Positions 9,276 through 56,122 of a stretch of 64,000 bases of DNA are shown piece by piece. Under the pieces are notes generated by a model. That model did no database searches and was not told where the DNA came from. It saw only the letters and a program-made list of their open reading frames with translations. Position 1 is the stretch's first letter. Every line of letters starts with the position of its first letter. Source of the stretch: Escherichia phage vb_EcoM_bov9_1; the sequence record MT884006.2; one strand, given 5' to 3'. Made by a program: the position numbers and the translations under genes.

Positions 9276-10595
9276 TCACACATAAAACACATCATAACGA
9301 CCACGAGTGACACCAACATAAAGAAGCTGCTGAGCTAATTCAGCATCTGCATAATGAATACAAGGCGTATAAATGAAAGCACGGTCTACAGACATACCCT
9401 GCGCTTTATGGAATGTTGATGCAGGAAGTGCTTTCACTTTACTAAACTGTGATTTAGCATCCCAAAAATCGCTCCACGGAGCTTTTCCGCCTTTGTTCCA
9501 ATTTTTATAAGTTTCTGCCGTTTTACCTAAAAATAGGTTAAACTTATACAATTCTTCATCGGATGAAATTATTTTAATCTTTTCACGATAATATTCATCA
9601 TCGCCGTAAGTTTCTACTGTTAAGTCCCAATGACGAATTAGATATTCTCCAGGAACACCACGAGCTTTAACAAACGTTGATGTATACTCTGCTTCTATAA
9701 TACGAACTAATTGTCCGTTATTAAAAATAATTTCTGATACAGGCTTTCCATCAATTTTATATGTTTTAATTAACGGTTCTTGCATTACAATAATTTCACC
9801 GACAATAAAGTCTTTATCAGTTTCAAAAATCTTTTTACGAATAATATTGTTTAACTTATCAACAGATTTATTCGTAAATGCCATTACGCGATTTTCAAAC
9901 AAATCATCTAGTGATTTGACGATTGAAAAATAATTTACCATAAAATCGCGTAAAGCGGTATCACCAGTAAATCCACGTACTCCATGCCCGTCAACAACTT
10001 TATCATAAATCCACTTACCGTTGCGAACATCAGTAGCTACATCAATAATAGGAGCATTACTGCGTTTAACTTCAGTGAGTTCACACTGATAAAAATCTTT
10101 GTGTGTAAAGAATGGACTGATATAAGCAGTATTTTCTCCTGGGTCAACAGGTCTAATTTGCTTATTATCGCCTATTCCAATTATAGTACACCACGGTGGG
10201 ATAGTTGAAAGCAAAATTTTGAAGAGCTTTCTATCATACATTGACACTTCGTCGCAGATTAATACCCTGCATTTAGCTAAATCTGGTACTTCCTTCTGTT
10301 CAAAAAGAACGTTTTCTTCATATGTTACTGGGTTAATTTTAAGAATACTGTGAATAGTACTCGCTTCTTTCCCCGACAGTTTTGAAAGAATCTTTTTAGC
10401 TGCATGTGTAGGAGCTGCCAAAATGATACCAGTTTCGCCCGTAGATATTAAAGCTTCAATGATGAACTTAGTAAGAGTAGTCTTACCAGTACCAGCAGGT
10501 CCATTAATAGTTACATGATGTTTCTTTTCTTTAATAGCCCTCATAACGATGTTAAAGGCATTTTTCTGACCTTCGGTCAAATCATCAAATGTCAT
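9276..10595 (-). CDS. dda: Dda DNA helicase (SF1B)
   Basis: 439-aa ORF; Walker A GPAGTGKTT, Walker B LICDEVSM, SF1B motifs; sequence recognisably Dda. Confidence 0.95.
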   Translation of the reverse strand: MTFDDLTEGQKNAFNIVMRAIKEKKHHVTINGPAGTGKTTLTKFIIEALISTGETGIILAAPTHAAKKILSKLSGKEASTIHSILKINPVTYEENVLFEQKEVPDLAKCRVLICDEVSMYDRKLFKILLSTIPPWCTIIGIGDNKQIRPVDPGENTAYISPFFTHKDFYQCELTEVKRSNAPIIDVATDVRNGKWIYDKVVDGHGVRGFTGDTALRDFMVNYFSIVKSLDDLFENRVMAFTNKSVDKLNNIIRKKIFETDKDFIVGEIIVMQEPLIKTYKIDGKPVSEIIFNNGQLVRIIEAEYTSTFVKARGVPGEYLIRHWDLTVETYGDDEYYREKIKIISSDEELYKFNLFLGKTAETYKNWNKGGKAPWSDFWDAKSQFSKVKALPASTFHKAQGMSVDRAFIYTPCIHYADAELAQQLLYVGVTRGRYDVFYV

Positions 10596-13726: not shown

Positions 13727-13894
13727 TGATTTCCTTTTGCCTACTAATGGACCGTCAGGAACTTTGTTTTCCTGAATGTATTTCTCATTTTCTTCCATCA
13801 TTTTACTGCCAATTTTACTGCCAATTTTAAGAAGCAAATCCAAGGCTTCATTTGCTTTAGCCTTTGCCTCTTCTAACGTCATATCTTTGGTCAT
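13727..13894 (-). CDS. small hypothetical protein with KIGSKIGSK repeat
   Basis: about 55-aa ORF not in the track; start overlaps the upstream stop (ATGA), stop overlaps the downstream start; coordinates hand-derived. Confidence 0.3.
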
Positions 13895-14094
13895 GATTTA
13901 TCACCATAGATGTCTCTCATCAATTTAAGCGCTGAGCGTTCTAATTTCTTTTCTTTCTCAGCACTAATCATTGATTTCATCCATTCTTCTGATTCGTTCT
14001 GCATTTCTTTATTTGCTTGTTCAACCCAACCATCGTCAATATACATTGAGTTTGGTCTATTGAACCATTCAAGAATCTTCTTGAGAGCTTTCAT
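13891..14094 (-). CDS. hypothetical protein
   Basis: 67-aa ORF. Confidence 0.4.
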
Positions 14095-41103: not shown

Positions 41104-41574
41104 TTAATCATGTTTCCACACCCCATCGGTATTTGACCAAAGTCGCTGATTATCTGATCCTCGCCACAGCTTTTTAGTCGGAAGATTTTTCTCATACTTC
41201 CCATCAATAATAACATCAACATATTTAAGCATTTCTAGTTGTTTAATATCTTCAAACTTATATCCTGTCCACAACCAAATGCTTTTATTGGGATAAAGAT
41301 TTTTTACTGTTTGAACCACAGAGTGAATCACGTCTCTGTTATCAGGATAAAGAGGGTCACCTCCGGTTATAGTTAATCCTTCTATATAATCATTATTCAA
41401 ACATTCAATTAATTGTTCTAGTGTTTCACCAGTGAATGGAATACCATTTCTAGCATTCCATGTTGATTTATTATAACACCCTTCGCATTTATGCAAACAA
41501 CCTGTAACGAAAAGAACGACCCTGCATCCAGGGCCATTCACAAAATCGCAAGGATAAAATCTATCATAATTCAT
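41104..41574 (-). CDS. nrdG: anaerobic ribonucleotide reductase activating protein NrdG (radical SAM)
   Basis: 156-aa ORF; CxxxCxxC cluster (CLHKCEGC); size matches T4 NrdG. Confidence 0.9.
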   Translation of the reverse strand: MNYDRFYPCDFVNGPGCRVVLFVTGCLHKCEGCYNKSTWNARNGIPFTGETLEQLIECLNNDYIEGLTITGGDPLYPDNRDVIHSVVQTVKNLYPNKSIWLWTGYKFEDIKQLEMLKYVDVIIDGKYEKNLPTKKLWRGSDNQRLWSNTDGVWKHD

Positions 41575-43388
41575 TGGTGTTTAACCCTATGCATGATTTC
41601 TTTATTTTTACCGAGATTAAATCCGCGTTCGTTCGGATTTCCCAAATAACCACATGTTCTTCTTATTGTGTTCATCTTTTTAGGATCAGTTTCTCCACAA
41701 ATAGAACAAACAAATCCGTTTTCAGTAGGAGTCATTTCATGGGTACTTCCACATGTAAAACATTTATCTACTGGCATATTAACACCAAAATAATCTAAAT
41801 GTTGTGCAGCATAATCCCATACGGCCTCAAGGCCTTTCAAGTTATTTTTCATATCAGGAAGTTCAACATAAGAAATGTGACCACCTGTCGCAATGAAATG
41901 ATATGGCGCTTCACGAGAAATCTTTTCAAACGGAGTAATATTTTCTTCTACTGAAACGTGGAAACTGTTAGTGTACCAGCCTTTATCGGTAACATCTTTT
42001 ACACTTCCATATCTTTCTGTATCAAGTTTACAGAAGCGATAACAAAGGTTTTCAGCAGGAGTAGAATACAAACTAAAAGCAAACCCAGTTCTTTCAGTCC
42101 ACTGTTTAAGACGAGCATTCATTTTAGTTAAAATTTCTCGTCCAATATCACGACCGACAAGAATATTCAATTCGTGAATACCAATGTATCCTAGAGACAC
42201 TGAACTTCTGCCATTTTTAAATAACTCAATTATATCGTCATCAGGTTTAAGACGAACCCCGAATGCACCTTCTTGGTAAAGAATAGGAGCAACAGTTGCT
42301 TTAACTCCTTTTAAGGAACTAATTCTACACATCAAAGCTTCAAAACACAAATCCATTCGCTCATTGAACAATTCGATAAATTTCTGTTCATTGAACTGTG
42401 TTCCAATATAAGAATCTAATGCGATACGAGGAAGATTCAGTGTTACAACACCGAGATTATTACGTCCATCAAGAATTTCATTACCGGTTGAATCTTTCCA
42501 CACACTCAAAAAACTGCGGCAACCCATTGGAGAAACAGGAATAGATGAGCCGGTGATAGCTTTATTGTTCTTAGCTGAAATAATATCAGGATACATTCTT
42601 TTGCTTGCGCACTCTAAAGCAAGCTGTTTAATATCATAGTTCGGATCGTCTTTATAAAGATTAACACCTTCTTCAACAAACATAACAAGCTTAGGGAAAA
42701 TAGGAGTTATCCCATCACGACCAAGACCTTTAATACGATTTTTCAGAATTGCTTTCTGAATCATTCGTTCAGTCCAGTCAGTTCCTGTACCAAATGTAAT
42801 TGTTACAAAAGGTGTTTGTCCGTTTGAACTAAAGAGAGTATTTACTTCATATTCATAAGCTTGGAATGCATCGTATACGTCTTTTTCTGTTTTAGACTGG
42901 GCATAATTCAACGCATCAGTGATTTGCCATTTTTCTGCATCCTCAATATGTTTTGCATAGGTGCGTTTAACATAAGGAGAAAGTACTTTATCTACATTCG
43001 CAAAAGTCGTTCCGCCATATTGATGGGAAGCAACCTGTGCAGTAATTTGCGCCATAATTGCAGTAGCAACTCCAATTGATTTAGGAGTTTCAATCTGTGC
43101 ATTACCTAGCTTAAATCCGTTTTCAAGCATTCCTTTTAAATCTACTAAACAACAATTAGTAAATGGAAGAGCAGGGGAATAATCAATATCGTGGAAATGG
43201 ATAATTCCGCTTTCATGCGCTTTCATAATAAAAGACGGGACCATATTTTTGGCAATGTGTTTAGACACAATACCAGCCATAAGGTCCCGTTGAGTTGGAA
43301 AAACACGAGAATCTTTATTAGCATTCTCGTTTAAAAGGTCTTTATTAGTTTTATGAATCAATCCTTCAATTTCTTTTTCAATTGTCAT
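41571..43388 (-). CDS. nrdD: anaerobic ribonucleoside-triphosphate reductase NrdD (glycyl radical enzyme), uninterrupted
   Basis: 605-aa ORF; C-terminal zinc ribbon CFTCGS...CSICG and glycyl radical motif RTCGYLG; continuous frame, no intron. Confidence 0.93.
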   Translation of the reverse strand: MTIEKEIEGLIHKTNKDLLNENANKDSRVFPTQRDLMAGIVSKHIAKNMVPSFIMKAHESGIIHFHDIDYSPALPFTNCCLVDLKGMLENGFKLGNAQIETPKSIGVATAIMAQITAQVASHQYGGTTFANVDKVLSPYVKRTYAKHIEDAEKWQITDALNYAQSKTEKDVYDAFQAYEYEVNTLFSSNGQTPFVTITFGTGTDWTERMIQKAILKNRIKGLGRDGITPIFPKLVMFVEEGVNLYKDDPNYDIKQLALECASKRMYPDIISAKNNKAITGSSIPVSPMGCRSFLSVWKDSTGNEILDGRNNLGVVTLNLPRIALDSYIGTQFNEQKFIELFNERMDLCFEALMCRISSLKGVKATVAPILYQEGAFGVRLKPDDDIIELFKNGRSSVSLGYIGIHELNILVGRDIGREILTKMNARLKQWTERTGFAFSLYSTPAENLCYRFCKLDTERYGSVKDVTDKGWYTNSFHVSVEENITPFEKISREAPYHFIATGGHISYVELPDMKNNLKGLEAVWDYAAQHLDYFGVNMPVDKCFTCGSTHEMTPTENGFVCSICGETDPKKMNTIRRTCGYLGNPNERGFNLGKNKEIMHRVKHQ

Positions 43389-45735: not shown

Positions 45736-46125
45736 TTAATCCAAAATATTATTAGGCATTGGTTGAACACTCACAAGTTCTTTAAAGAACTCAGTAGAAT
45801 CAGGCAATTTAACCATTTCCGGAGCATGCTTATTAAATTTATGTTTACAATGACGGCATTTATATTCAAGCTCTGGTTTACGCCAGTTAATCAATTGAAC
45901 TTGTTCAGTACCGCATTCAGGGCAATTAGGAACGTTTTTAGAAGCTCTTTCACGTCGTTCAACCATAGCCATAATAGCATCCCATGCTGGAGGTTTAAAA
46001 TCTAAATCGTCGCAGCCGTGAATCTTTCCACGCATTTCCATATCATCTTCCTCACCAGCCATAATAATTTTAATTAAACTGGAATTACTTGAAGCTGCAA
46101 TGTCTTCTAATAAACGCTTTTTCAT
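45736..46125 (-). CDS. zinc-ribbon protein (CPECG...CRHCKH)
   Basis: 129-aa ORF. Confidence 0.5.
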
Positions 46126-47051
46126 TTCAATACCTCAATAGCATTACGTAAACCATTTGCTTTTGCATTAAGAGCTTTTAACAATTTGGTGTGTTCTGCA
46201 ATTTGGGCTTCAACTCCAATCAAACGGGCATTGAGATATTCACGTTCTTCACTCAGATTATCAACCTTTTCTACTTTAGGCTCTTTTACAACTGTCTTAT
46301 ATGTATTAGGGTTCTTCAGTTTAATTAGAATGCGTGAACTGTATAACATTGAACCATTATCTTCGGTTTCGTCATACATTTCCACTACGTCCATAATTTT
46401 TAACATCATGCGGAGTTTATAAGACAACGAACGAATAGTTTTGTTGTGCTTATTAATTTCTTTAGCTGTCATGGTGCCAAGATTACGTGAGTAATAATAA
46501 GGAACCTGGATATTAATTAATACTGATGAACCACCTGGCTTGTGTGTTACTTCATCAGCAATAACCCAGTCCTTAACATGAACTGTATTTGTACGGTCAT
46601 CGCCCGCGGTAAATAGTTTGCGAGCATGCTTAAAAAGCATATTCACTTGGTCATTGAATTGACAAGCAAATTTATCAGCAAATTTAGTTTCAGGAATGGT
46701 AGAAAACCAATCAGCCAAATGAGTCTTTTTAACATCATTAACAATAGTAAATTCAACCAAATCGGTTATAGATGTCTCAGATTTAATGAAGCTCGGCTTC
46801 ATAAAGTTTTTAATGTTCTCATGAGCTACAGTAGAAGATAACATACGAGAACGTTTAAACCATTCAAGCAAATTGCCTAACGAATGAGAATAAGCGTTTT
46901 GAGTATCTTTACAGATATGATTTTCCTGGCTAACATATTGAAGGAAATCACGAAGAATATTATTGATTACTGCTCTGTGTCCGATCTGATAATTACGATG
47001 TTTAGTAATAAGACTGTCAAAATAATCAATATAATGTTTACGAGTTTTCAT
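46122..47051 (-). CDS. hypothetical protein with C-terminal coiled-coil tail
   Basis: 309-aa ORF ending in a heptad-like segment. Confidence 0.5.
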   Translation of the reverse strand: MKTRKHYIDYFDSLITKHRNYQIGHRAVINNILRDFLQYVSQENHICKDTQNAYSHSLGNLLEWFKRSRMLSSTVAHENIKNFMKPSFIKSETSITDLVEFTIVNDVKKTHLADWFSTIPETKFADKFACQFNDQVNMLFKHARKLFTAGDDRTNTVHVKDWVIADEVTHKPGGSSVLINIQVPYYYSRNLGTMTAKEINKHNKTIRSLSYKLRMMLKIMDVVEMYDETEDNGSMLYSSRILIKLKNPNTYKTVVKEPKVEKVDNLSEEREYLNARLIGVEAQIAEHTKLLKALNAKANGLRNAIEVLK

Positions 47052-47105
47052 GTTCTTCTCACTTGGTTAATGATTTATACTCCGAGCCATCCTTGGCTTT
47101 AAATT

Positions 47106-48137
47106 TTACTTAATTAACTGTAAAGCCTGTTCTAAACGATCAAGACGATTAACAGATTCTTCCCAAATCCTTTTAGCCTGCTCATATTCTTTCTGCGCTT
47201 TATTAGAAATTTCTAGAACTTCTTTATAAGCTTTTTCTAATGCAATAACTTCTGGACGAATTTCTACCTGTTCAGGTGAATCATCAAGACATTCCATTAG
47301 TTCCTCAAGGGTAGTTTCTTCTTTAGGAGTATTCACAATTTCATCACATTTTTGTTGGTAAATTTCTTTATTAGTCGGTGAGTACGCACACTTTACTTCA
47401 CGAAGACTAATTATAATTTTATATCCTTCCCATCCACACATATTTTTGAAAGGATATGTATGAATACTTTTTACAGTTTCCATACAGCCCAAAGCCGTCT
47501 CTAATTGATGAGTTATAGTGCTAGCAATTGAGAAAAATTTATTAATGTTCTTTTGATTAGCTGCTGGTGTAAAAAATCCATAATTCACAAAAATAGCTAC
47601 TTTATTTTTATCAAGCTCATATTCTTTTACGATAATCATATCAGAAGCCAAAGGATGAATTTGACGATAATCGCCATAACATAATTTAGAAGCTGATTTT
47701 AGAATTTGTCCTTTGAAAAGTCTGAAATTACTAATCCAACGACGAGTAAAAATATTCTCAGGGTCTTCTTTGATATTAAGATGATAAGAATTAACATCAC
47801 CGAACCAATTATATCCTACTACATCTTTGGTTCGTTTAATTTCTTTCCCAAAATTACCAAGAATATCCCGATTAACCAAATATGAAAGAAGACGAGATCC
47901 TTTAAAGGTTTTCTTAATGGCATCTTTATTTGTACGACTAGAAATTTCATGAACTTCATGAATAAATTTGCCGGAAGAAACAATACTTGCATCAATATTA
48001 TTGAGCCATTGATTGATAATAGAAAGAACACTATTTTGGCCAAACAGCGGTATAACTTTATCATCAATAACGCTATTGAATGATTTGATATATTCGTTAC
48101 GAGTCATATTAATCTCCTCAGTAGAAAGTAAGAACAT
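47106..48137 (-). CDS. hypothetical protein with C-terminal coiled-coil tail
   Basis: 343-aa ORF. Confidence 0.5.
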   Translation of the reverse strand: MFLLSTEEINMTRNEYIKSFNSVIDDKVIPLFGQNSVLSIINQWLNNIDASIVSSGKFIHEVHEISSRTNKDAIKKTFKGSRLLSYLVNRDILGNFGKEIKRTKDVVGYNWFGDVNSYHLNIKEDPENIFTRRWISNFRLFKGQILKSASKLCYGDYRQIHPLASDMIIVKEYELDKNKVAIFVNYGFFTPAANQKNINKFFSIASTITHQLETALGCMETVKSIHTYPFKNMCGWEGYKIIISLREVKCAYSPTNKEIYQQKCDEIVNTPKEETTLEELMECLDDSPEQVEIRPEVIALEKAYKEVLEISNKAQKEYEQAKRIWEESVNRLDRLEQALQLIK

Positions 48138-48165
48138 TATACCACATCCTTGTGGCGAAGTAAAC
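48137..48165 (-). promoter_or_regulatory. T4-type early promoter
   Basis: minus-strand GTTTAC-17-TGgTATAAT. Confidence 0.6.
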
Positions 48166-49184
48166 TAGTTCAGTGCATTTAGTGCGTTGTTCAGTTTAGA
48201 ACGTTGCTTCGTGAGATTTTTGACTTTTTCTTGAGCTTTTTCTAGCATCTTTTCAGCTTCTAGCACTTCATTGGTCGCTTTAACGAGTTCATCATCTACT
48301 GCCTTGATAGACTTCTCAATCGCATCCGCGTGCCATTTTTCAACAGGTTTAAGACTCGGATTTTCAATAGGAAGAAAATTCACTTTATTGAATTTCCATG
48401 CATCTTTATTGCCTGAACTATACATCCAAAATTTAGGATCGTTTGATGAGTAATTAGATAAATTTAAGTTATCTTGCACTTCTTGCTTTTTCTCTTGCGG
48501 GACTTCATCCTTTCTCAAAAAATCGTATTTAAATGAAACGATCATATCAAGTTCATATGTTGTTGTATGTTCCCAATTTCGCTCAAAACGAGGTAAAATC
48601 TTAGAATGAACAGCGGCAACAACATCCATATACTTAAATGCTTCTGTCAACTGCGATTTAAGGCATTCGCAAATTGAAAGAGAATTTTTTGTATTAGGTT
48701 TAAAGCTAATTCGTGCAGTTCTATTATTTTCTTTTAATGGTCTTACTTCCATCTGAAGAGTATAACCATCAAATTTCAGGTTCTTTAAGTTAATGTCAGA
48801 ACCTTTTAATCGACTAGCCGTCGACAAAATTTGCTTTAATTGTTTACGGAATAGAGCAATAAATCTCCATTCAATACGATAATGATTTGGATTGAAAAAT
48901 CCAGATGATAAATCGACCTTACTCTGACCAACACCTTGAACAAACAGAGGATTTTTATAATCAATAGTTTTACAGAAATCGGTGAGCTGCTCACGAGCAG
49001 TCATTTGTGTAATATATCCCGCTTTACTAAAATGACGTAACCATTCACTGCTATTCATATATTTAAAGTGAATATCACGATTAACTTTATCAGGGTCTAA
49101 ATTATTTTGGCACAAAAATGTCATAACATCACGAGTATAGCTGGCATTACGAACCATATCTTCAATTTGAGAACGAGTTTTCAT
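48165..49184 (-). CDS. hypothetical protein with C-terminal coiled-coil tail
   Basis: 339-aa ORF. Confidence 0.5.
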   Translation of the reverse strand: MKTRSQIEDMVRNASYTRDVMTFLCQNNLDPDKVNRDIHFKYMNSSEWLRHFSKAGYITQMTAREQLTDFCKTIDYKNPLFVQGVGQSKVDLSSGFFNPNHYRIEWRFIALFRKQLKQILSTASRLKGSDINLKNLKFDGYTLQMEVRPLKENNRTARISFKPNTKNSLSICECLKSQLTEAFKYMDVVAAVHSKILPRFERNWEHTTTYELDMIVSFKYDFLRKDEVPQEKKQEVQDNLNLSNYSSNDPKFWMYSSGNKDAWKFNKVNFLPIENPSLKPVEKWHADAIEKSIKAVDDELVKATNEVLEAEKMLEKAQEKVKNLTKQRSKLNNALNALN

Positions 49185-49192
49185 GGTGTTCC

Positions 49193-50095
49193 TTAAGATT
49201 TAAGTAAATCAACAATTTTAATTAACTTTTCACGCTCAGATTTAGCTTTACTACTCAATCCAGATAGTCTAAAGATTTCATCGTCATATTGTTGAATAGA
49301 AATATTCAGCTCTTCAATTTGCTTATTAAAATAATCAATTTGTTCAGAATGTTTTTCGTTACTACGAACTGGTACAGGTTTTGTAGGAAATTTAGTTAAA
49401 CTGGATTCATCCGGGCGATAAATTAAAATACAATTTGAACCAATCGGGCATTTAGCACCAGACACATATTCTAATGTTCCAGCTTCCTTTAAAACTTCAA
49501 AAGCTAAACAGAGATGATGCCCCATATTGACATAATCTGTAGAGTGAGCTCTGACGTAATAATCATCTCCACGAGTGCTAAATTTAAAGCATTTAAGGTC
49601 TTCTGTATTATTAGTTTTAAAAATCATTTGTTTATCTAAACCTTTAGCTAATCGAGCGCCTAATGCTAATAATCGTCGTTGATTTTCCCACAAATCCGCA
49701 ATCATTTGATCGAATGACAATTTCGGCATTAGTCGACCATAAAGGTCATATCCTTTATTATAATTGCGAAGGATTTCACTCGCGTTAATACGAGACAATG
49801 CTCCGATTTTATTAAGGGCTTTCATGATGCGATTAGATAAACCCATTCCAGACCCGTTTGTTCGTTGTAAATGTTTTTCTAATCCAAATCCAATATCAAC
49901 TTTAAATTTATCTAAAATTTCAGCATGAACATCTCTGTCAATAACATTCAAATCCAAAGTTGGGTTAAATCTATGAAAAAATTTATCTGGCTCTCCACGA
50001 CGAAGTACAGTCCATTCATTTAATTTTTTATTAACTAAAGATTTAATTACTGCGTTGATATTATTAATTACTACTGACATATTTTCCTCACTCAA
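49193..50095 (-). CDS. hypothetical protein with C-terminal coiled-coil tail
   Basis: 300-aa ORF. Confidence 0.5.
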   Translation of the reverse strand: MSEENMSVVINNINAVIKSLVNKKLNEWTVLRRGEPDKFFHRFNPTLDLNVIDRDVHAEILDKFKVDIGFGLEKHLQRTNGSGMGLSNRIMKALNKIGALSRINASEILRNYNKGYDLYGRLMPKLSFDQMIADLWENQRRLLALGARLAKGLDKQMIFKTNNTEDLKCFKFSTRGDDYYVRAHSTDYVNMGHHLCLAFEVLKEAGTLEYVSGAKCPIGSNCILIYRPDESSLTKFPTKPVPVRSNEKHSEQIDYFNKQIEELNISIQQYDDEIFRLSGLSSKAKSEREKLIKIVDLLKS

Positions 50096-50496
50096 TTTTC
50101 AATTTTACTAAATACACAGAATATGATGGAAAAGACTATATAAGCACCGCATACAGATTGAACTAATACCATTCCAAAGAACCAAACAATATTATCAAAC
50201 ACTGTCTGTTTTACGTCGAAAGGACGTAAACTTACAGTAATATTATCGCCTTTTTCTATTGATGAATACATCTCTGGTGAAATATATTCACTAAATCTAT
50301 AACCGTCTTTGAGTTCATATACGGCAATAAACGATAAACTAGACCCCTTTCCTTGAGTTCCTGTAAGGGTATTAACTACAGTAACATCATAATCTTTATA
50401 ATGCATATAATCATTAATTGCATAATAACCATATGCAACTACTACACATAAACAACATATCAATAAATTCAATCTTTTAATTATCAACTGTTTCAT
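50092..50496 (-). CDS. membrane protein (N- and C-terminal hydrophobic helices)
   Basis: 134-aa ORF. Confidence 0.5.
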   Translation of the reverse strand: MKQLIIKRLNLLICCLCVVVAYGYYAINDYMHYKDYDVTVVNTLTGTQGKGSSLSFIAVYELKDGYRFSEYISPEMYSSIEKGDNITVSLRPFDVKQTVFDNIVWFFGMVLVQSVCGAYIVFSIIFCVFSKIEN

Positions 50497-50551
50497 AATA
50501 ATCTCAATTAAAAGGGCTTAGAACCATTATACCATCCTTGGTATAAAGCGG

Positions 50552-51139
50552 TTATGCGAGTACCGTCTTTAACCGTTCTTCAAACTTCCGAAGAGTATTT
50601 TGGCGTTCAGCTCTTTGCTTTTTGTAAGTTTCAATACGCTCTGAAATGAGATTGTATCGTTCATTTACTGATTCTTTCATAAAATCAGGAATTTCACGAG
50701 AAGCTTTAATCTCGTCAAATTTATCAATAACAGCTTGCTCTTCAGCAATTAAGTTATCATACATCAAAATATCTTTCTTGATGAACTCAATATCTTCTTG
50801 AGTTACACGAGATAATTTAGATGCTTTATCCTTTTTGTACTGTTCGTTAGTATCACGAGACCAGTGTAATGTACGATTTTTATTCGTATTCTTGTAAATT
50901 TCTACAATACCAATCTCATCGATAATAACGATCCAATTCCAACGGGATTTGTAAATTTGTCCTCCATCAACAGTGATTTCACCTCCGATTGAGATGTCAT
51001 TAAAGAACTTGCTTTGTGCTTCAGATTTAAATTTACCATCATTGTAGTTTACCAAGTTGAAAATATCTTTAGCATTCATTTTCTGTTCCTCCGTAGTTGA
51101 TAGTTGTATAGTACCACAGAGGAACGGTCTTGTAAACAA
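50552..51139 (-). CDS. hypothetical protein with C-terminal coiled coil
   Basis: 195-aa ORF; start probably internal. Confidence 0.45.
   Translation of the reverse strand: MFTRPFLCGTIQLSTTEEQKMNAKDIFNLVNYNDGKFKSEAQSKFFNDISIGGEITVDGGQIYKSRWNWIVIIDEIGIVEIYKNTNKNRTLHWSRDTNEQYKKDKASKLSRVTQEDIEFIKKDILMYDNLIAEEQAVIDKFDEIKASREIPDFMKESVNERYNLISERIETYKKQRAERQNTLRKFEERLKTVLA
51108..51137 (-). promoter_or_regulatory. T4-type early promoter in a repeated cassette
   Basis: minus-strand GTTTAC-18-TGgTACTAT. Confidence 0.5.
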
Positions 51140-51454
51140 CTAAAAGAAACTTCTTTCACAATTTTTTCCACTGAACCACGCACTCACTGCTTTCTTAGTC
51201 TCAGGAGCAGTGTTATCCATAAACCATTCAAAGGCAGCCTTTTTATGATTCTGGAGGGCTTCTCGGGCTTTAATCTGCTCACGGTCTATTAACACTAACA
51301 TATGAGCCTTTCTTGTCACCAAGGGCTTCTTATGATTTTTTGAATACTCCCAGTCATTTGTCCATCGCATTGTCGTTGCGAATTGAAATACAGCTTCTTT
51401 AATTTTAGTTTCGTAAATTTCACGAGCCTTTGAGTATAACATCATTACCTCCAT
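51140..51454 (-). CDS. hypothetical protein
   Basis: 104-aa ORF. Confidence 0.45.
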   Translation of the reverse strand: MEVMMLYSKAREIYETKIKEAVFQFATTMRWTNDWEYSKNHKKPLVTRKAHMLVLIDREQIKAREALQNHKKAAFEWFMDNTAPETKKAVSAWFSGKNCERSFF

Positions 51455-51543
51455 TTACCAGTTTAATTCTAGTCATCTTTTTGATGGCAGTCCATATAAT
51501 CTATTTCTGAACTGCCTTTTTATCTTAGAAGGCCTCTTATGAA

Positions 51544-52524
51544 TTATTTCAGAAGAGTAACCTCAGCGATTTCTTCCCAACCGTTTTTGTCGGTCATAAT
51601 AAAGTCAGCAAGATAAAGAGCAGTACGCAGTGAAACATTGCGTAAACGATTAACATTGACTTTCATCCATGATAATGCTTTATAAGTTTCTTCATCAGAA
51701 AGACCACGCTTTTGCATCATGTCAGTTGAAAGAATAACATCTTCAACCCTGACCATAATTTCTTCATTAGTGTGAACACCCAAATCCAAATAAACTGAGC
51801 GGGACACTAATGCTTGTAAATGTGGAGCAAGTTTAGTACCACGGTCTAATTCGCGGTCAATGTCAACGTTTGTGATAAAAACAATCGTTCCTTTAAATTC
51901 AAACTCACGCTCAATGCCTTTTTCTTCTAAGTAAGAAGATGCGGTGCTCCAGCAGACTTTACGGGTCTCTCCAGTGTCCAGAGCAGCTTTCAGAAGATTA
52001 AGAATGTCCATATCAGAGAAAACATCCACATCATCAATCAAAAGGACAGAATTCTCTTCACGATTATTCCAAAGCTGCTCATAAAGACCAATACCAGAGA
52101 TTTTACCATTAATGCTTTTATATTCAATGTATCCAATATCATTTGCTTTATTTAAAGCTTTATCTAAAGAATACGTTTTACCAATACCTGCTGCACCAGA
52201 GATAATTAATGAACGAATGTTTCCGTTAATAATACCATTCGTCATCATTCCCATAACATTAAATCTTTTATTAATGCGGGTTTTCATATCTTCATACGAT
52301 TCTTTAACTTCTTCAACTTTTACACCATCATATGAAATGTCTGATTTGTAAACCCAAACACCGCGACGTTTACCGTCAATTTCAACAAAAACTTTACCAT
52401 CTCCTTGTGCATCTACCGGAGCATTATCTGGGAACCATTCGCCTAAGAGCTCAAAAGTTCCAGAGATTTCTTTACCGAAGTAGATACCCTTATTGATAGT
52501 TACAGTTTTCATTTTATTCTCCAA
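51544..52524 (-). CDS. P-loop ATPase (AAA-like)
   Basis: 326-aa ORF; Walker A GAAGIGKT and Walker B VLLIDDVD. Confidence 0.6.
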   Translation of the reverse strand: MENKMKTVTINKGIYFGKEISGTFELLGEWFPDNAPVDAQGDGKVFVEIDGKRRGVWVYKSDISYDGVKVEEVKESYEDMKTRINKRFNVMGMMTNGIINGNIRSLIISGAAGIGKTYSLDKALNKANDIGYIEYKSINGKISGIGLYEQLWNNREENSVLLIDDVDVFSDMDILNLLKAALDTGETRKVCWSTASSYLEEKGIEREFEFKGTIVFITNVDIDRELDRGTKLAPHLQALVSRSVYLDLGVHTNEEIMVRVEDVILSTDMMQKRGLSDEETYKALSWMKVNVNRLRNVSLRTALYLADFIMTDKNGWEEIAEVTLLK

Positions 52525-52546
52525 ATCCGTATCAGTTGATAGTTGT

Positions 52547-52576
52547 ATAGTACCATAAAGCTTTATGCTTGTAAAC
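52547..52576 (-). promoter_or_regulatory. T4-type early promoter in a repeated cassette
   Basis: minus-strand GTTTAC-18-TGgTACTAT upstream of the ATPase gene. Confidence 0.5.
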
Positions 52577-52604
52577 AGTTTTGTGAAAAATTTTTGAAAT
52601 AAAA

Positions 52605-52625
52605 AAGGGAGCCCGAAGGCTCCCT
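52605..52625 (-). terminator. hairpin with UUCG loop
   Basis: gggagcc-cgaa-ggctccc followed by a T-tract on the minus strand. Confidence 0.55.
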
Positions 52626-52626
52626 A

Positions 52627-53640
52627 TCATTTATAATAACTTCGGTGGTTTTCAAGATAGACCTTCTCAAGGAAGTCATCCCAGAAACTCATGTCTACTG
52701 TTTTAGGCATACCATTCTTAGAAGCTTCAGTAGATGCTGCTTCTACTTGATCGACCACATCTTCCAAAAACTCTTGAACTGTTTTAAATGGATGTTTACC
52801 CAACTTCACGTCGAGAATAAATGGAGCATCTTGGAGTGGATAAATCAAGTCGCCAGTTTTGTAAATTTCCAATAGTTGAAGTCCACCACGACAAGCATGA
52901 CTTAGTGCTTTCCAATCAATACCTTCATTAGCTTCGGCCTTACGAGCACGTTCACCATATTCAGCATCTAATTTGTTCAGTGACTGCTTAAGCTCAATAA
53001 GAGAAAGCGTTGTCTGATATTTACGACCCAGCACTGTATAGAACATTTGTGGACCTGTTTTCTCATGATTATGGAACACCCATTCACAGAATTCGTTTTC
53101 TGGAAGACGATGCTTAATATCTTCAACTTTAGTACGACGCTGCTTAATGGAACCGTCTTCTTGGTAATCAACCCATTGCTCAGGGATTTGATTAACTACT
53201 TTCAATACATCACGTAATGCAGCCAAACGAGAACCCTTGACGCCGTATTTAGAAGCTTGCTTGCGGACATATCCTAAATAGGATTTCATGTTAGTCGTAT
53301 AAAAACGAGAACGGTTGTCTTGAATAAACTTCCACACATCAGGCAAATCAGATTTAACCACTAGTTCAGGTGGAGTGTGAAGCATATCCAATGCTACAGT
53401 TTCACCATCTGCTGCTAATTTAAAGAAATACTTAAGACTATACAATTCGTGGTCAATATCATCTTTAGTGTTTTTAGATGATGTGTTGTTGGTATTTTTA
53501 CTCATATGCTCTTTAACATTTCCGATAAGAATATCACGAGCAGGAGGAACAAAGATTTCTTTAAAATCTACATCAGATTCTGGGGTAGAAGTTCCATAAA
53601 GATGACTACCAAAATAGCTTTTCATTACTGTTTTCATCAT
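52627..53640 (-). CDS. putative nucleotidyltransferase (Pol-beta-like NTase fold)
   Basis: 337-aa ORF; N-terminal GSHLYGTSTPESDVDF resembles the GS...DxD motif of Pol-beta-superfamily nucleotidyltransferases. Confidence 0.5.
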   Translation of the reverse strand: MMKTVMKSYFGSHLYGTSTPESDVDFKEIFVPPARDILIGNVKEHMSKNTNNTSSKNTKDDIDHELYSLKYFFKLAADGETVALDMLHTPPELVVKSDLPDVWKFIQDNRSRFYTTNMKSYLGYVRKQASKYGVKGSRLAALRDVLKVVNQIPEQWVDYQEDGSIKQRRTKVEDIKHRLPENEFCEWVFHNHEKTGPQMFYTVLGRKYQTTLSLIELKQSLNKLDAEYGERARKAEANEGIDWKALSHACRGGLQLLEIYKTGDLIYPLQDAPFILDVKLGKHPFKTVQEFLEDVVDQVEAASTEASKNGMPKTVDMSFWDDFLEKVYLENHRSYYK

Positions 53641-55882: not shown

Positions 55883-56122
55883 TTAAACTCTCGTATTATG
55901 ATCGATAATTTCATCAAGAAACATATCTAACGCTTCTAAAGCATTATCAACTTTAGCTTCAAATTCTTCAATACCTTTATTTGCAATGCCTGATGAAAAC
56001 CAAGCAAAGTCACTAAGTTCCTCATCTGCTTTACGAATTAAAGCTACCAATTCCTTAATTTTATCCGCTTGTTCGATACTAATCATTATTCCACCACATA
56101 TGAAAGAGAGAATATTGCACAT
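55883..56122 (-). CDS. hypothetical protein
   Basis: 79-aa ORF. Confidence 0.4.

Follow-up and report, generated by a model that had tools for sequence, protein, structure and literature searches.

Diverged tandem paralogs with a common coiled-coil-like tail in the nrdC.3 to nrdC.6 array of a T-even phage: probable anti-defense proteins

The stretch of Escherichia phage vb_EcoM_bov9_1 DNA analyzed here (64,000 nucleotides of sequence record MT884006.2, referred to as the window) carries four consecutive open reading frames (ORFs) of similar size on its minus strand, between positions 46122 and 50095. The question raised by this locus is whether the four genes belong together and, if so, what they may do for the phage. 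A preliminary description, made from the sequence alone, had proposed a family of modular proteins in which unlike globular heads sit on a common oligomerizing tail, possibly with a common partner. The ORFs are the orthologs of T4 nrdC.3, nrdC.4, nrdC.5, and nrdC.6 (reference AF158101), and sequence comparisons indicate that their products are diverged paralogs related over bodies and tails alike. We consider it probable that the array consists of ancient tandem duplicates of one Straboviridae accessory gene and encodes nonenzymatic anti-defense binders with diversified bodies and a conserved tail.

The window DNA is 100% identical to that of phage vb_EcoM_bov10K1 (MT884007.2), and more than 650 Tequatrovirus-like records align to it at 80 to 99%. 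The array is flanked by ORFs for NrdD, NrdG, endonuclease VII, and NrdC, and the gene order nrdC.3-.4-.5-.6-.7-.8 is the same as in T4. NrdC.3 and NrdC.4 gave full-length matches to the profile phrog_1435 (E = 9e-114 and E = 5e-166, respectively), NrdC.6 gave a full-length match to phrog_2257 (E = 3e-152), and NrdC.5 matched PF23882 with residues 1 to 339 on profile positions 1 to 307 of 307 (E = 1.8e-126; 422 bits, with a cutoff of 30); PF26897 and PF26899 are carried by homologs of NrdC.4 and NrdC.6, respectively. All four ORFs noticed initially are present, with two starts corrected. The nrdC.4 gene most likely starts at ATG 48107 and not at position 48137 of the longest ORF, because a GAGGAG Shine-Dalgarno sequence lies 6 nucleotides upstream of the former, while the ATG at 48137 falls inside a promoter-like -10 box. 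Similarly, the most likely start of nrdC.6 is ATG 50080, which has GAGG upstream, instead of TTG 50095. Both corrected starts agree with the T4 annotation.

Pairwise BLASTP revealed no match between most pairs of array proteins; for NrdC.3 and NrdC.4, it gave an E value of 3e-6 with 24% identity over 226 residues. The initial impression that the N-terminal domains are unalike is true by eye only, however, as comparison of profiles links the bodies. For this comparison, divergent homologs of other T-even genera were added to the family profiles before these were aligned with hhalign. The NrdC.3 and NrdC.4 families were joined with 98% probability (E = 2e-13), NrdC.3 and NrdC.5 with 86.9% (E = 4e-6; 235 columns, residues 57 to 309 against 41 to 339), and NrdC.4 and NrdC.5 with 58.5% (E = 1e-4; 236 columns). 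Direct alignments of NrdC.6 with the NrdC.3, NrdC.4, and NrdC.5 families were weak (P of about 0.003 to 0.1). When 1.84 billion representatives were searched exhaustively with the NrdC.6 profile in HMMER, no more than 15 proteins came up; three of these (P0234, P0236, and P0237; 288 to 345 residues) are remote full-length relatives from metagenomes and serve as bridge proteins. The profile of these bridges aligned with NrdC.6 (98.8%, E = 5e-17), with NrdC.5 (97.8%, E = 7e-13, 246 columns), and with NrdC.4 (92.1%, E = 6e-7, 143 columns, all in the body), and the NrdC.6 profile extended by the bridges aligned with NrdC.5 (94.1%, E = 1e-7). A plain hidden Markov model of the three bridges recovered NrdC.6 (E = 3e-16), NrdC.5 (E = 4e-7), and NrdC.4 (E = 0.013) among the window ORFs and no other ORF.

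In the resulting superfamily alignment, the proteins can be aligned collinearly from roughly residue 45 up to the C terminus, in four blocks that comprise three body motifs and the tail. The body motifs all lie in helices and read '[FL]S..xA+..L..FG+', 'hL..[GA][AS]+L..G..+.M.FK', and 'QL..A', and the tail motif, '+R.+L..A[ILM]..L+', closes 1 to 2 residues from the C terminus. At the DNA level, repeats between the paralogs were limited to short matches, most of them chance-like, with the exception of the start region that nrdC.3 and nrdC.5 share, where each encodes an initial MKTR. Since the copies share no DNA-level similarity, the duplications are old. The families PF26897, PF23882, and PF26899 (PHROGs 1435, 2351, and 2257) would on these alignments be united into one, which appears to be new: in a literature search, we found no paper that unites them or that describes a common-register tail or an expansion from one to four copies.

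The tails were scored for heptads in a COILS-style procedure with 28 residues, applied to the last 40 residues of 111 nonoverlapping window ORFs. The four array ORFs took ranks 1 to 4 of 111 with scores of 2.00, 1.73, 1.69, and 1.56 (window median, 0.96); these values are relative scores calibrated only within the window and carry no formal COILS probability. Four adjacent genes would fill the top four places of 111 by chance with a probability of 108/C(111,4), or about 1.8e-5. Each tail maintains an unbroken heptad register over 44 to 56 residues, with 83 to 94% hydrophobic residues at the a and d positions, and these positions are better conserved than b, c, e, f, and g. Relative to the C terminus, the register is identical in the four tails (...a b c d e). 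Within each of the four families, the tail is the lowest-entropy and best-conserved segment and the linker the most variable one. AlphaFold2 predictions, which covered NrdC.4 and NrdC.5, end in one continuous terminal helix in either case (pLDDT, the predicted local distance difference test score, of about 78 to 85 and of 66 to 92, respectively), preceded by a low-confidence linker. The heptad-like tails noticed in the preliminary description are thus borne out, and they have the properties by which a coiled coil is recognized: a continuous heptad of at least 28 residues with hydrophobic a and d positions. Such a tail would probably oligomerize, in a homo- or hetero-oligomeric helical bundle.

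Several variants of these tails were encountered. NrdC.6 of the T4 reference (AF158101, 275 residues) lacks the coiled-coil tail, as one A is absent (GAGCTGAATATT reads GAGCTG-ATATT at locus 10040-10070, equivalent to about position 49300 of the window) and the intact tail lies in the +1 frame. Either an error in the reference sequence or a frameshift confined to that strain probably accounts for this; in the T4 annotation used by HIDEN-SEQ, nrdC.6 is 891 nucleotides long. In Shigella phage Sf25, a stretch of about 83 residues is duplicated in tandem within a 378-residue NrdC.6 variant (P0122), and the junction of the duplication, at 'QIEEL', is at the same site as the T4 frameshift. A Gapriver-like phage locus (L022; 5606-6031 and 7941-8912) has in-frame deletions in NrdC.4 (323 residues) and NrdC.8 (141 residues) by which most of the tail is gone and the last 8 to 11 or so residues are kept (...DRLEQALELLK and ...ERLKTVLA). 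Elsewhere in the window, three small ORFs of 67 to 79 residues (2200-2403, 55883-56122, and 13891-14094) have C-terminal coiled-coil scores of 1.46 to 1.55, and their size is unlike that of the array proteins.

The AlphaFold2 model of NrdC.4 (mean pLDDT, 84.9; predicted template modeling score, 0.68) consists of an N-terminal helical bundle (residues 3 to 84), a three-stranded sheet (88 to 110), a helix (119 to 140), a hairpin (158 to 174), another helix (185 to 208), a second hairpin (212 to 235), and two short helices, followed by a disordered linker (276 to 284) and the terminal helix of 48 residues. The NrdC.5 model is poor (pLDDT, 50) because the alignment is shallow; its confident parts, a strand-helix-strand-strand segment (156 to 218) and the terminal helix, occur in the same order as in NrdC.4. 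No His, Cys, Asp, or Glu residue is conserved across the superfamily alignment, and no enzyme family was matched by the array proteins in searches of Pfam, NCBIfam, and PDB, which together suggest a nonenzymatic function. Profile searches of PDB with NrdC.4/NrdC.3 and with NrdC.5 returned designed helical repeats or noise only. Subthreshold Pfam hits (PHL domain, phage integrase SAM-like, and DUF3905) and NCBIfam XerD-like hits for NrdC.3 were far below the cutoffs and were taken as noise.

It is of note that the products of nrdC.3 to nrdC.11 (window positions 46122 to 53640) are labeled 'thioredoxin' in hundreds of GenBank records. The label was rejected for the array proteins, as no thioredoxin or glutaredoxin family of Pfam or NCBIfam was matched and a CxxC motif is missing from all four translations. 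This widespread misannotation, flagged here, apparently spread from the gene names nrdC.N.

The family extends beyond the window. With the NrdC.4 model as the query, BFVD yielded full-length structural matches to proteins of about 310 to 370 residues in T4-like phages of Acinetobacter, Klebsiella, Erwinia, Serratia, Pectobacterium, and Aeromonas. The order nrdC.8-(nrdC.7)-nrdC.6-nrdC.5-nrdC.4-(nrdC.3) is kept in the other T-even genera examined. Tequatrovirus has four copies; Dhaka- and Gapriver-like loci have three and lack nrdC.3, and a further locus with three copies (L007) has nrdC.3 and lacks nrdC.4. Kanagawavirus IME523 has one member of 335 residues, related to the bridge proteins, at the syntenic location, where it is flanked by nrdC and by the nrdC.10/.11 homologs, and this is very probably the 335-residue IME523 protein matched by the NrdC.4 model in BFVD. 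The presence of a single syntenic copy in IME523 and of three or four copies in T-even loci indicates, at the level of gene content, that the array is a lineage-specific tandem expansion of a Straboviridae-specific family.

The members of the array differ in how much they vary. The nrdC.4, nrdC.5, and nrdC.6 genes are 85 to 93% identical to their T4 counterparts throughout. NrdC.3 occurs in three allelic types (about 95 to 100%, 75%, and 60% identity), and compared with the T4 allele, identity is 77 to 90% in the N terminus, 73% in the tail, and 23 to 50% in the center. This hypervariable center looks like recombinational mosaicism or diversifying selection. In addition, a 299-residue protein on a 167-kb contig (P0120) is an in-frame fusion of NrdC.5 (about residues 145 to 265) to NrdC.3 (about residues 136 to 309) with a 'VN' microhomology at the joint, and therefore reflects a deletion that removed nrdC.4 and parts of both neighbors.

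While the paralogy, the register and conservation of the tail, the terminal helices of two members, the copy number, and the identity with T4 genes were observed here, the evidence on function comes from the literature and covers NrdC.5 and Dsr1, dispensability, and the neighboring genes. With T4 nrdC.5 supplied on a plasmid, a T4 deletion clone regains the ability to plate on cells that carry dsr1, a SIR2-domain defense gene; the authors term nrdC.5 an uncharacterized early gene (PMC9391042). The TPR sensor of Dsr1 was reported in a 2026 preprint to recognize the phage major capsid protein (PMC12803255). Our literature search on nrdC.5, anti-Dsr1, and DUF7235 found no later work beyond the 2022 study of nrdC.5 (PMC9391042). 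The tables of the HIDEN-SEQ preprint (10.1101/2025.11.20.689424) class T4 nrdC.3 to nrdC.6 and bas37_0198 to bas37_0201 as nonessential on E. coli K-12, the fraction of disrupted TA sites being 91% or more.

In that preprint, T4 nrdC.1 is reported to inhibit Septu, and bas37_0203 to inhibit Druantia III. The former is the counterpart of the nrdC.1 gene next to the array, and the latter was confirmed as the ortholog of nrdC.8, two genes away on the other side (Table 1). Because both flanking neighbors are orthologs of reported inhibitors, the stretch from nrdC.1 to nrdC.8 behaves as an anti-defense island. NrdC.8 itself has a coiled-coil-like tail (score, 1.51; rank 7 of 111) and was considered as a fifth member of the family; it is not homologous by profile, as hhalign gave P values of at least 0.06 with all four families.

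Taken together, these data lead us to the following proposal. Each array protein would follow the same layout: a helical region at the N terminus that is particular to its family, an alpha/beta core that is common to all and bears the three conserved motifs, a linker that varies and is disordered in part, and an amphipathic C-terminal helix of about 45 to 59 residues in an unbroken heptad register. They are early, dispensable accessory proteins within the anti-defense island; in each of them, the diversified body would select the host defense protein to bind and block (Dsr1 for NrdC.5), and the conserved tail would supply either oligomerization, and with it avidity or geometry, or a docking function common to the paralogs. 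NrdC.3, NrdC.4, and NrdC.6 would then most likely inhibit other host defense systems. Direct binding, oligomerization by the tail, and this anti-defense role of the three paralogs are what we infer from the evidence above. As to the common partner suggested in the preliminary description, the data on NrdC.5 and Dsr1 point to a separate defense target for each paralog and not to a common one, with a shared role of the tail possible.

Several points weigh against this proposal. The common fold is supported by sequence profiles and not by structure, the link to NrdC.6 depends on the three metagenomic bridge sequences and on transitivity, and the heptad scores are, as stated, relative ones. Instead of oligomerizing, the long amphipathic helix of the tail could pack against the body of the same protein or against a partner. 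The functional evidence is limited to NrdC.5 and is genetic only, by plasmid complementation. As far as the available part of the HIDEN-SEQ preprint goes, NrdC.3, NrdC.4, and NrdC.6 showed no significant conditional phenotype, and bas37_0201 had a log2 fold change of -0.73 with q = 0.81 in one comparison.

With regard to the origin of the array, the alternative to paralogy is that four unrelated globular proteins gained a generic coiled-coil tail, or converged on one, through modular shuffling. The silence of BLASTP for most pairs and the separate Pfam and PHROG entries of NrdC.4, NrdC.5, and NrdC.6 speak for this explanation, as do the tendency of coiled-coil segments to yield spurious compositional matches and the neighboring NrdC.8, which has a similar tail and no detectable homology. 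The alignments, however, span the bodies (235 columns for NrdC.3 and NrdC.5, 246 for the bridges and NrdC.5, and 143 body columns for the bridges and NrdC.4), body motifs are held in common, the tails are identical in register and end motif, and related genera have a single syntenic copy. Shuffling is therefore already largely refuted by the profile alignments, and we regard it as highly improbable. Of the preliminary description, the diversified bodies and the common coiled-coil-like tail stand, while the idea of unrelated heads on a shared tail does not: of the checks it had proposed, pairwise profile alignment found the bodies to be collinear and heptad scoring ranked the tails highest in the window. 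Because the bodies are also homologous and collinear, the shared tail appears to have been inherited by tandem duplication and divergence and not fused onto different heads.

With regard to function, the four proteins could be paralogs as proposed and yet serve as early host-takeover or regulatory proteins that act, for example, on host metabolism, the nucleoid, or the timing of phage assembly, with an indirect effect of NrdC.5 on Dsr1. The genetic nature of the rescue (PMC9391042) would fit this, and since Dsr1 is reported to sense the major capsid protein (PMC12803255), altered levels of free capsid protein or NAD+ could also account for it; furthermore, NrdC.3, NrdC.4, and NrdC.6 have no known phenotype in the part of the HIDEN-SEQ preprint that is available. 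Against this, the array sits between the anti-defense genes nrdC.1 and nrdC.8 reported there, is by the same source fully dispensable on laboratory hosts, and shows no enzyme signatures, and its copy-number variation and the hypervariable center of NrdC.3 are typical of arms-race genes. We therefore judge an indirect effect unlikely. Less likely still is that the proteins are structural-protein decoys, in which the alpha/beta core would derive from a tail-terminator-like domain, imitate a virion protein, and fill the sensor domains of pattern-recognition defense proteins without activating them; a similarity to phage tail terminators (the lambda gpU fold) is not significant in Foldseek, and there is no sequence similarity. 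Our preferred reading, that of nonenzymatic binders directed at defense proteins, can be taken one speculative step further, to a modular anti-sensor platform in which the tail would build homo- or mixed-paralog oligomers and terminator-like cores would act as nonactivating decoys that plug sensor domains such as the TPR domains of Dsr1 or Avs-type systems. We hold this extension to be quite doubtful; if it were true, one tandem array would provide broad-spectrum protection against virion-sensing defenses.

The features of the array and its neighbors are collected in Table 1. The promoter-like site between nrdC.5 and nrdC.4 is weak evidence of a promoter, because a scan of the array region found no excess of such sites over shuffled sequence (37 sites, compared with 32.7 expected). 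A candidate intrinsic terminator on the minus strand at 52606-52625, a GC-rich hairpin of 8 pairs (6 GC) followed by a T-run, lies just downstream of nrdC.11 and, on the basis of its sequence, likely bounds the nrdC.10-nrdC.1 transcription block. Further along, nrdD (41571-43388) is an uninterrupted ORF of 605 residues in the window, whereas T4 nrdD holds the I-TevII group I intron, and the mobC homing endonuclease gene found between nrdG and nrdD in T4 is absent from the window.

Table 1. Features of the nrdC.3 to nrdC.6 array and its neighbors (positions in the window; gene lengths are given with the two starts as corrected)
Feature	Position	Strand	Remark
nrdC.1 ortholog, 80 aa	45491..45733	-	97% nucleotide identity to T4 nrdC-nrdC.1 segment
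nrdC.3 ortholog, 309 aa	46122..47051	-	60% identity to T4 NrdC.3
nrdC.3 coiled-coil-like tail	roughly residues 262-309, nt 46125-46268	-	heptad score 1.69
nrdC.4 ortholog, 333 aa	47106..48107	-	91% identity to T4 NrdC.4
nrdC.4 predicted tail helix	residues 285-332, nt 47109-47255	-	AlphaFold2 model
sigma-70-like promoter candidate, TTTACT-17-TATAAT with TG extension, between nrdC.5 and nrdC.4	48136..48164	-	10/12 consensus positions
nrdC.5 ortholog, 339 aa, Pfam DUF7235	48165..49184	-	93% identity to T4 NrdC.5 over 340 aa
nrdC.5 predicted tail helix	residues 280-338, nt 48168-48347	-	AlphaFold2 model
nrdC.6 ortholog, 295 aa	49193..50080	-	96% identity to T4 NrdC.6 over 259 aa
nrdC.6 tail, conserved mid-tail Gly (RLSGL)	last ~44 residues, nt 49196-49327	-	
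nrdC.8 ortholog, 175 aa	50552..51079	-	bas37_0203 at this position in KarlGJung (Bas37)

All four genes have long been annotated in T4 as ORFs with a DUF or PHROG entry, and for one of them a function has been published. The apparently new elements are the unification of the families, the identical register of the conserved tails, the expansion from one to four copies, and the status of three of the paralogs as candidates. T-even phages are the main model for arms races with the host, yet the majority of their accessory genes await an explanation; in this light, NrdC.3, NrdC.4, and NrdC.6 are three concrete and inexpensive candidates for new anti-defense specificities, and the array offers a structure-function hypothesis in which the body confers specificity and the tail oligomerization or docking. 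The array thereby extends a known kind of system and does not reveal a new one.

The closest known counterpart is T4 NrdC.5 (DUF7235, PF23882; Srikant, Guegler, and Laub, eLife 2022, PMC9391042), of which the product of 48165-49184 is the ortholog: it matches the Pfam family over its full length, and its gene occupies the same place in the genome. While that study treats nrdC.5 as an isolated gene (PMC9391042), here it belongs to a set of four tandem paralogs that have core and tail in common. The remaining members correspond, in the same gene order, to T4 NrdC.3 and NrdC.4 (PHROG 1435, PF26897) and NrdC.6 (PHROG 2257, PF26899), which databases list as separate families of unknown function. 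In comparison with gpU-like terminators, the NrdC proteins are distinguished by an extra helical domain at the N terminus and by the coiled-coil tail, and they are nonstructural early products. DSAD1 of SPbeta-like phages, an inhibitor of DSR2, is similar to NrdC.5 in outcome, since both neutralize a SIR2-type NADase sensor-effector. Direct binding is established for DSAD1 and presumed for NrdC.5. Other T-even anti-defense islands, such as dmd-tifA-adfA, are likewise early, dispensable, and variable gene clusters with several members validated against different defenses. We know of no paralogy described among the genes of the dmd-tifA island, and it is in this respect that the nrdC.1-nrdC.8 island differs from it, as four of its genes are mutual paralogs.

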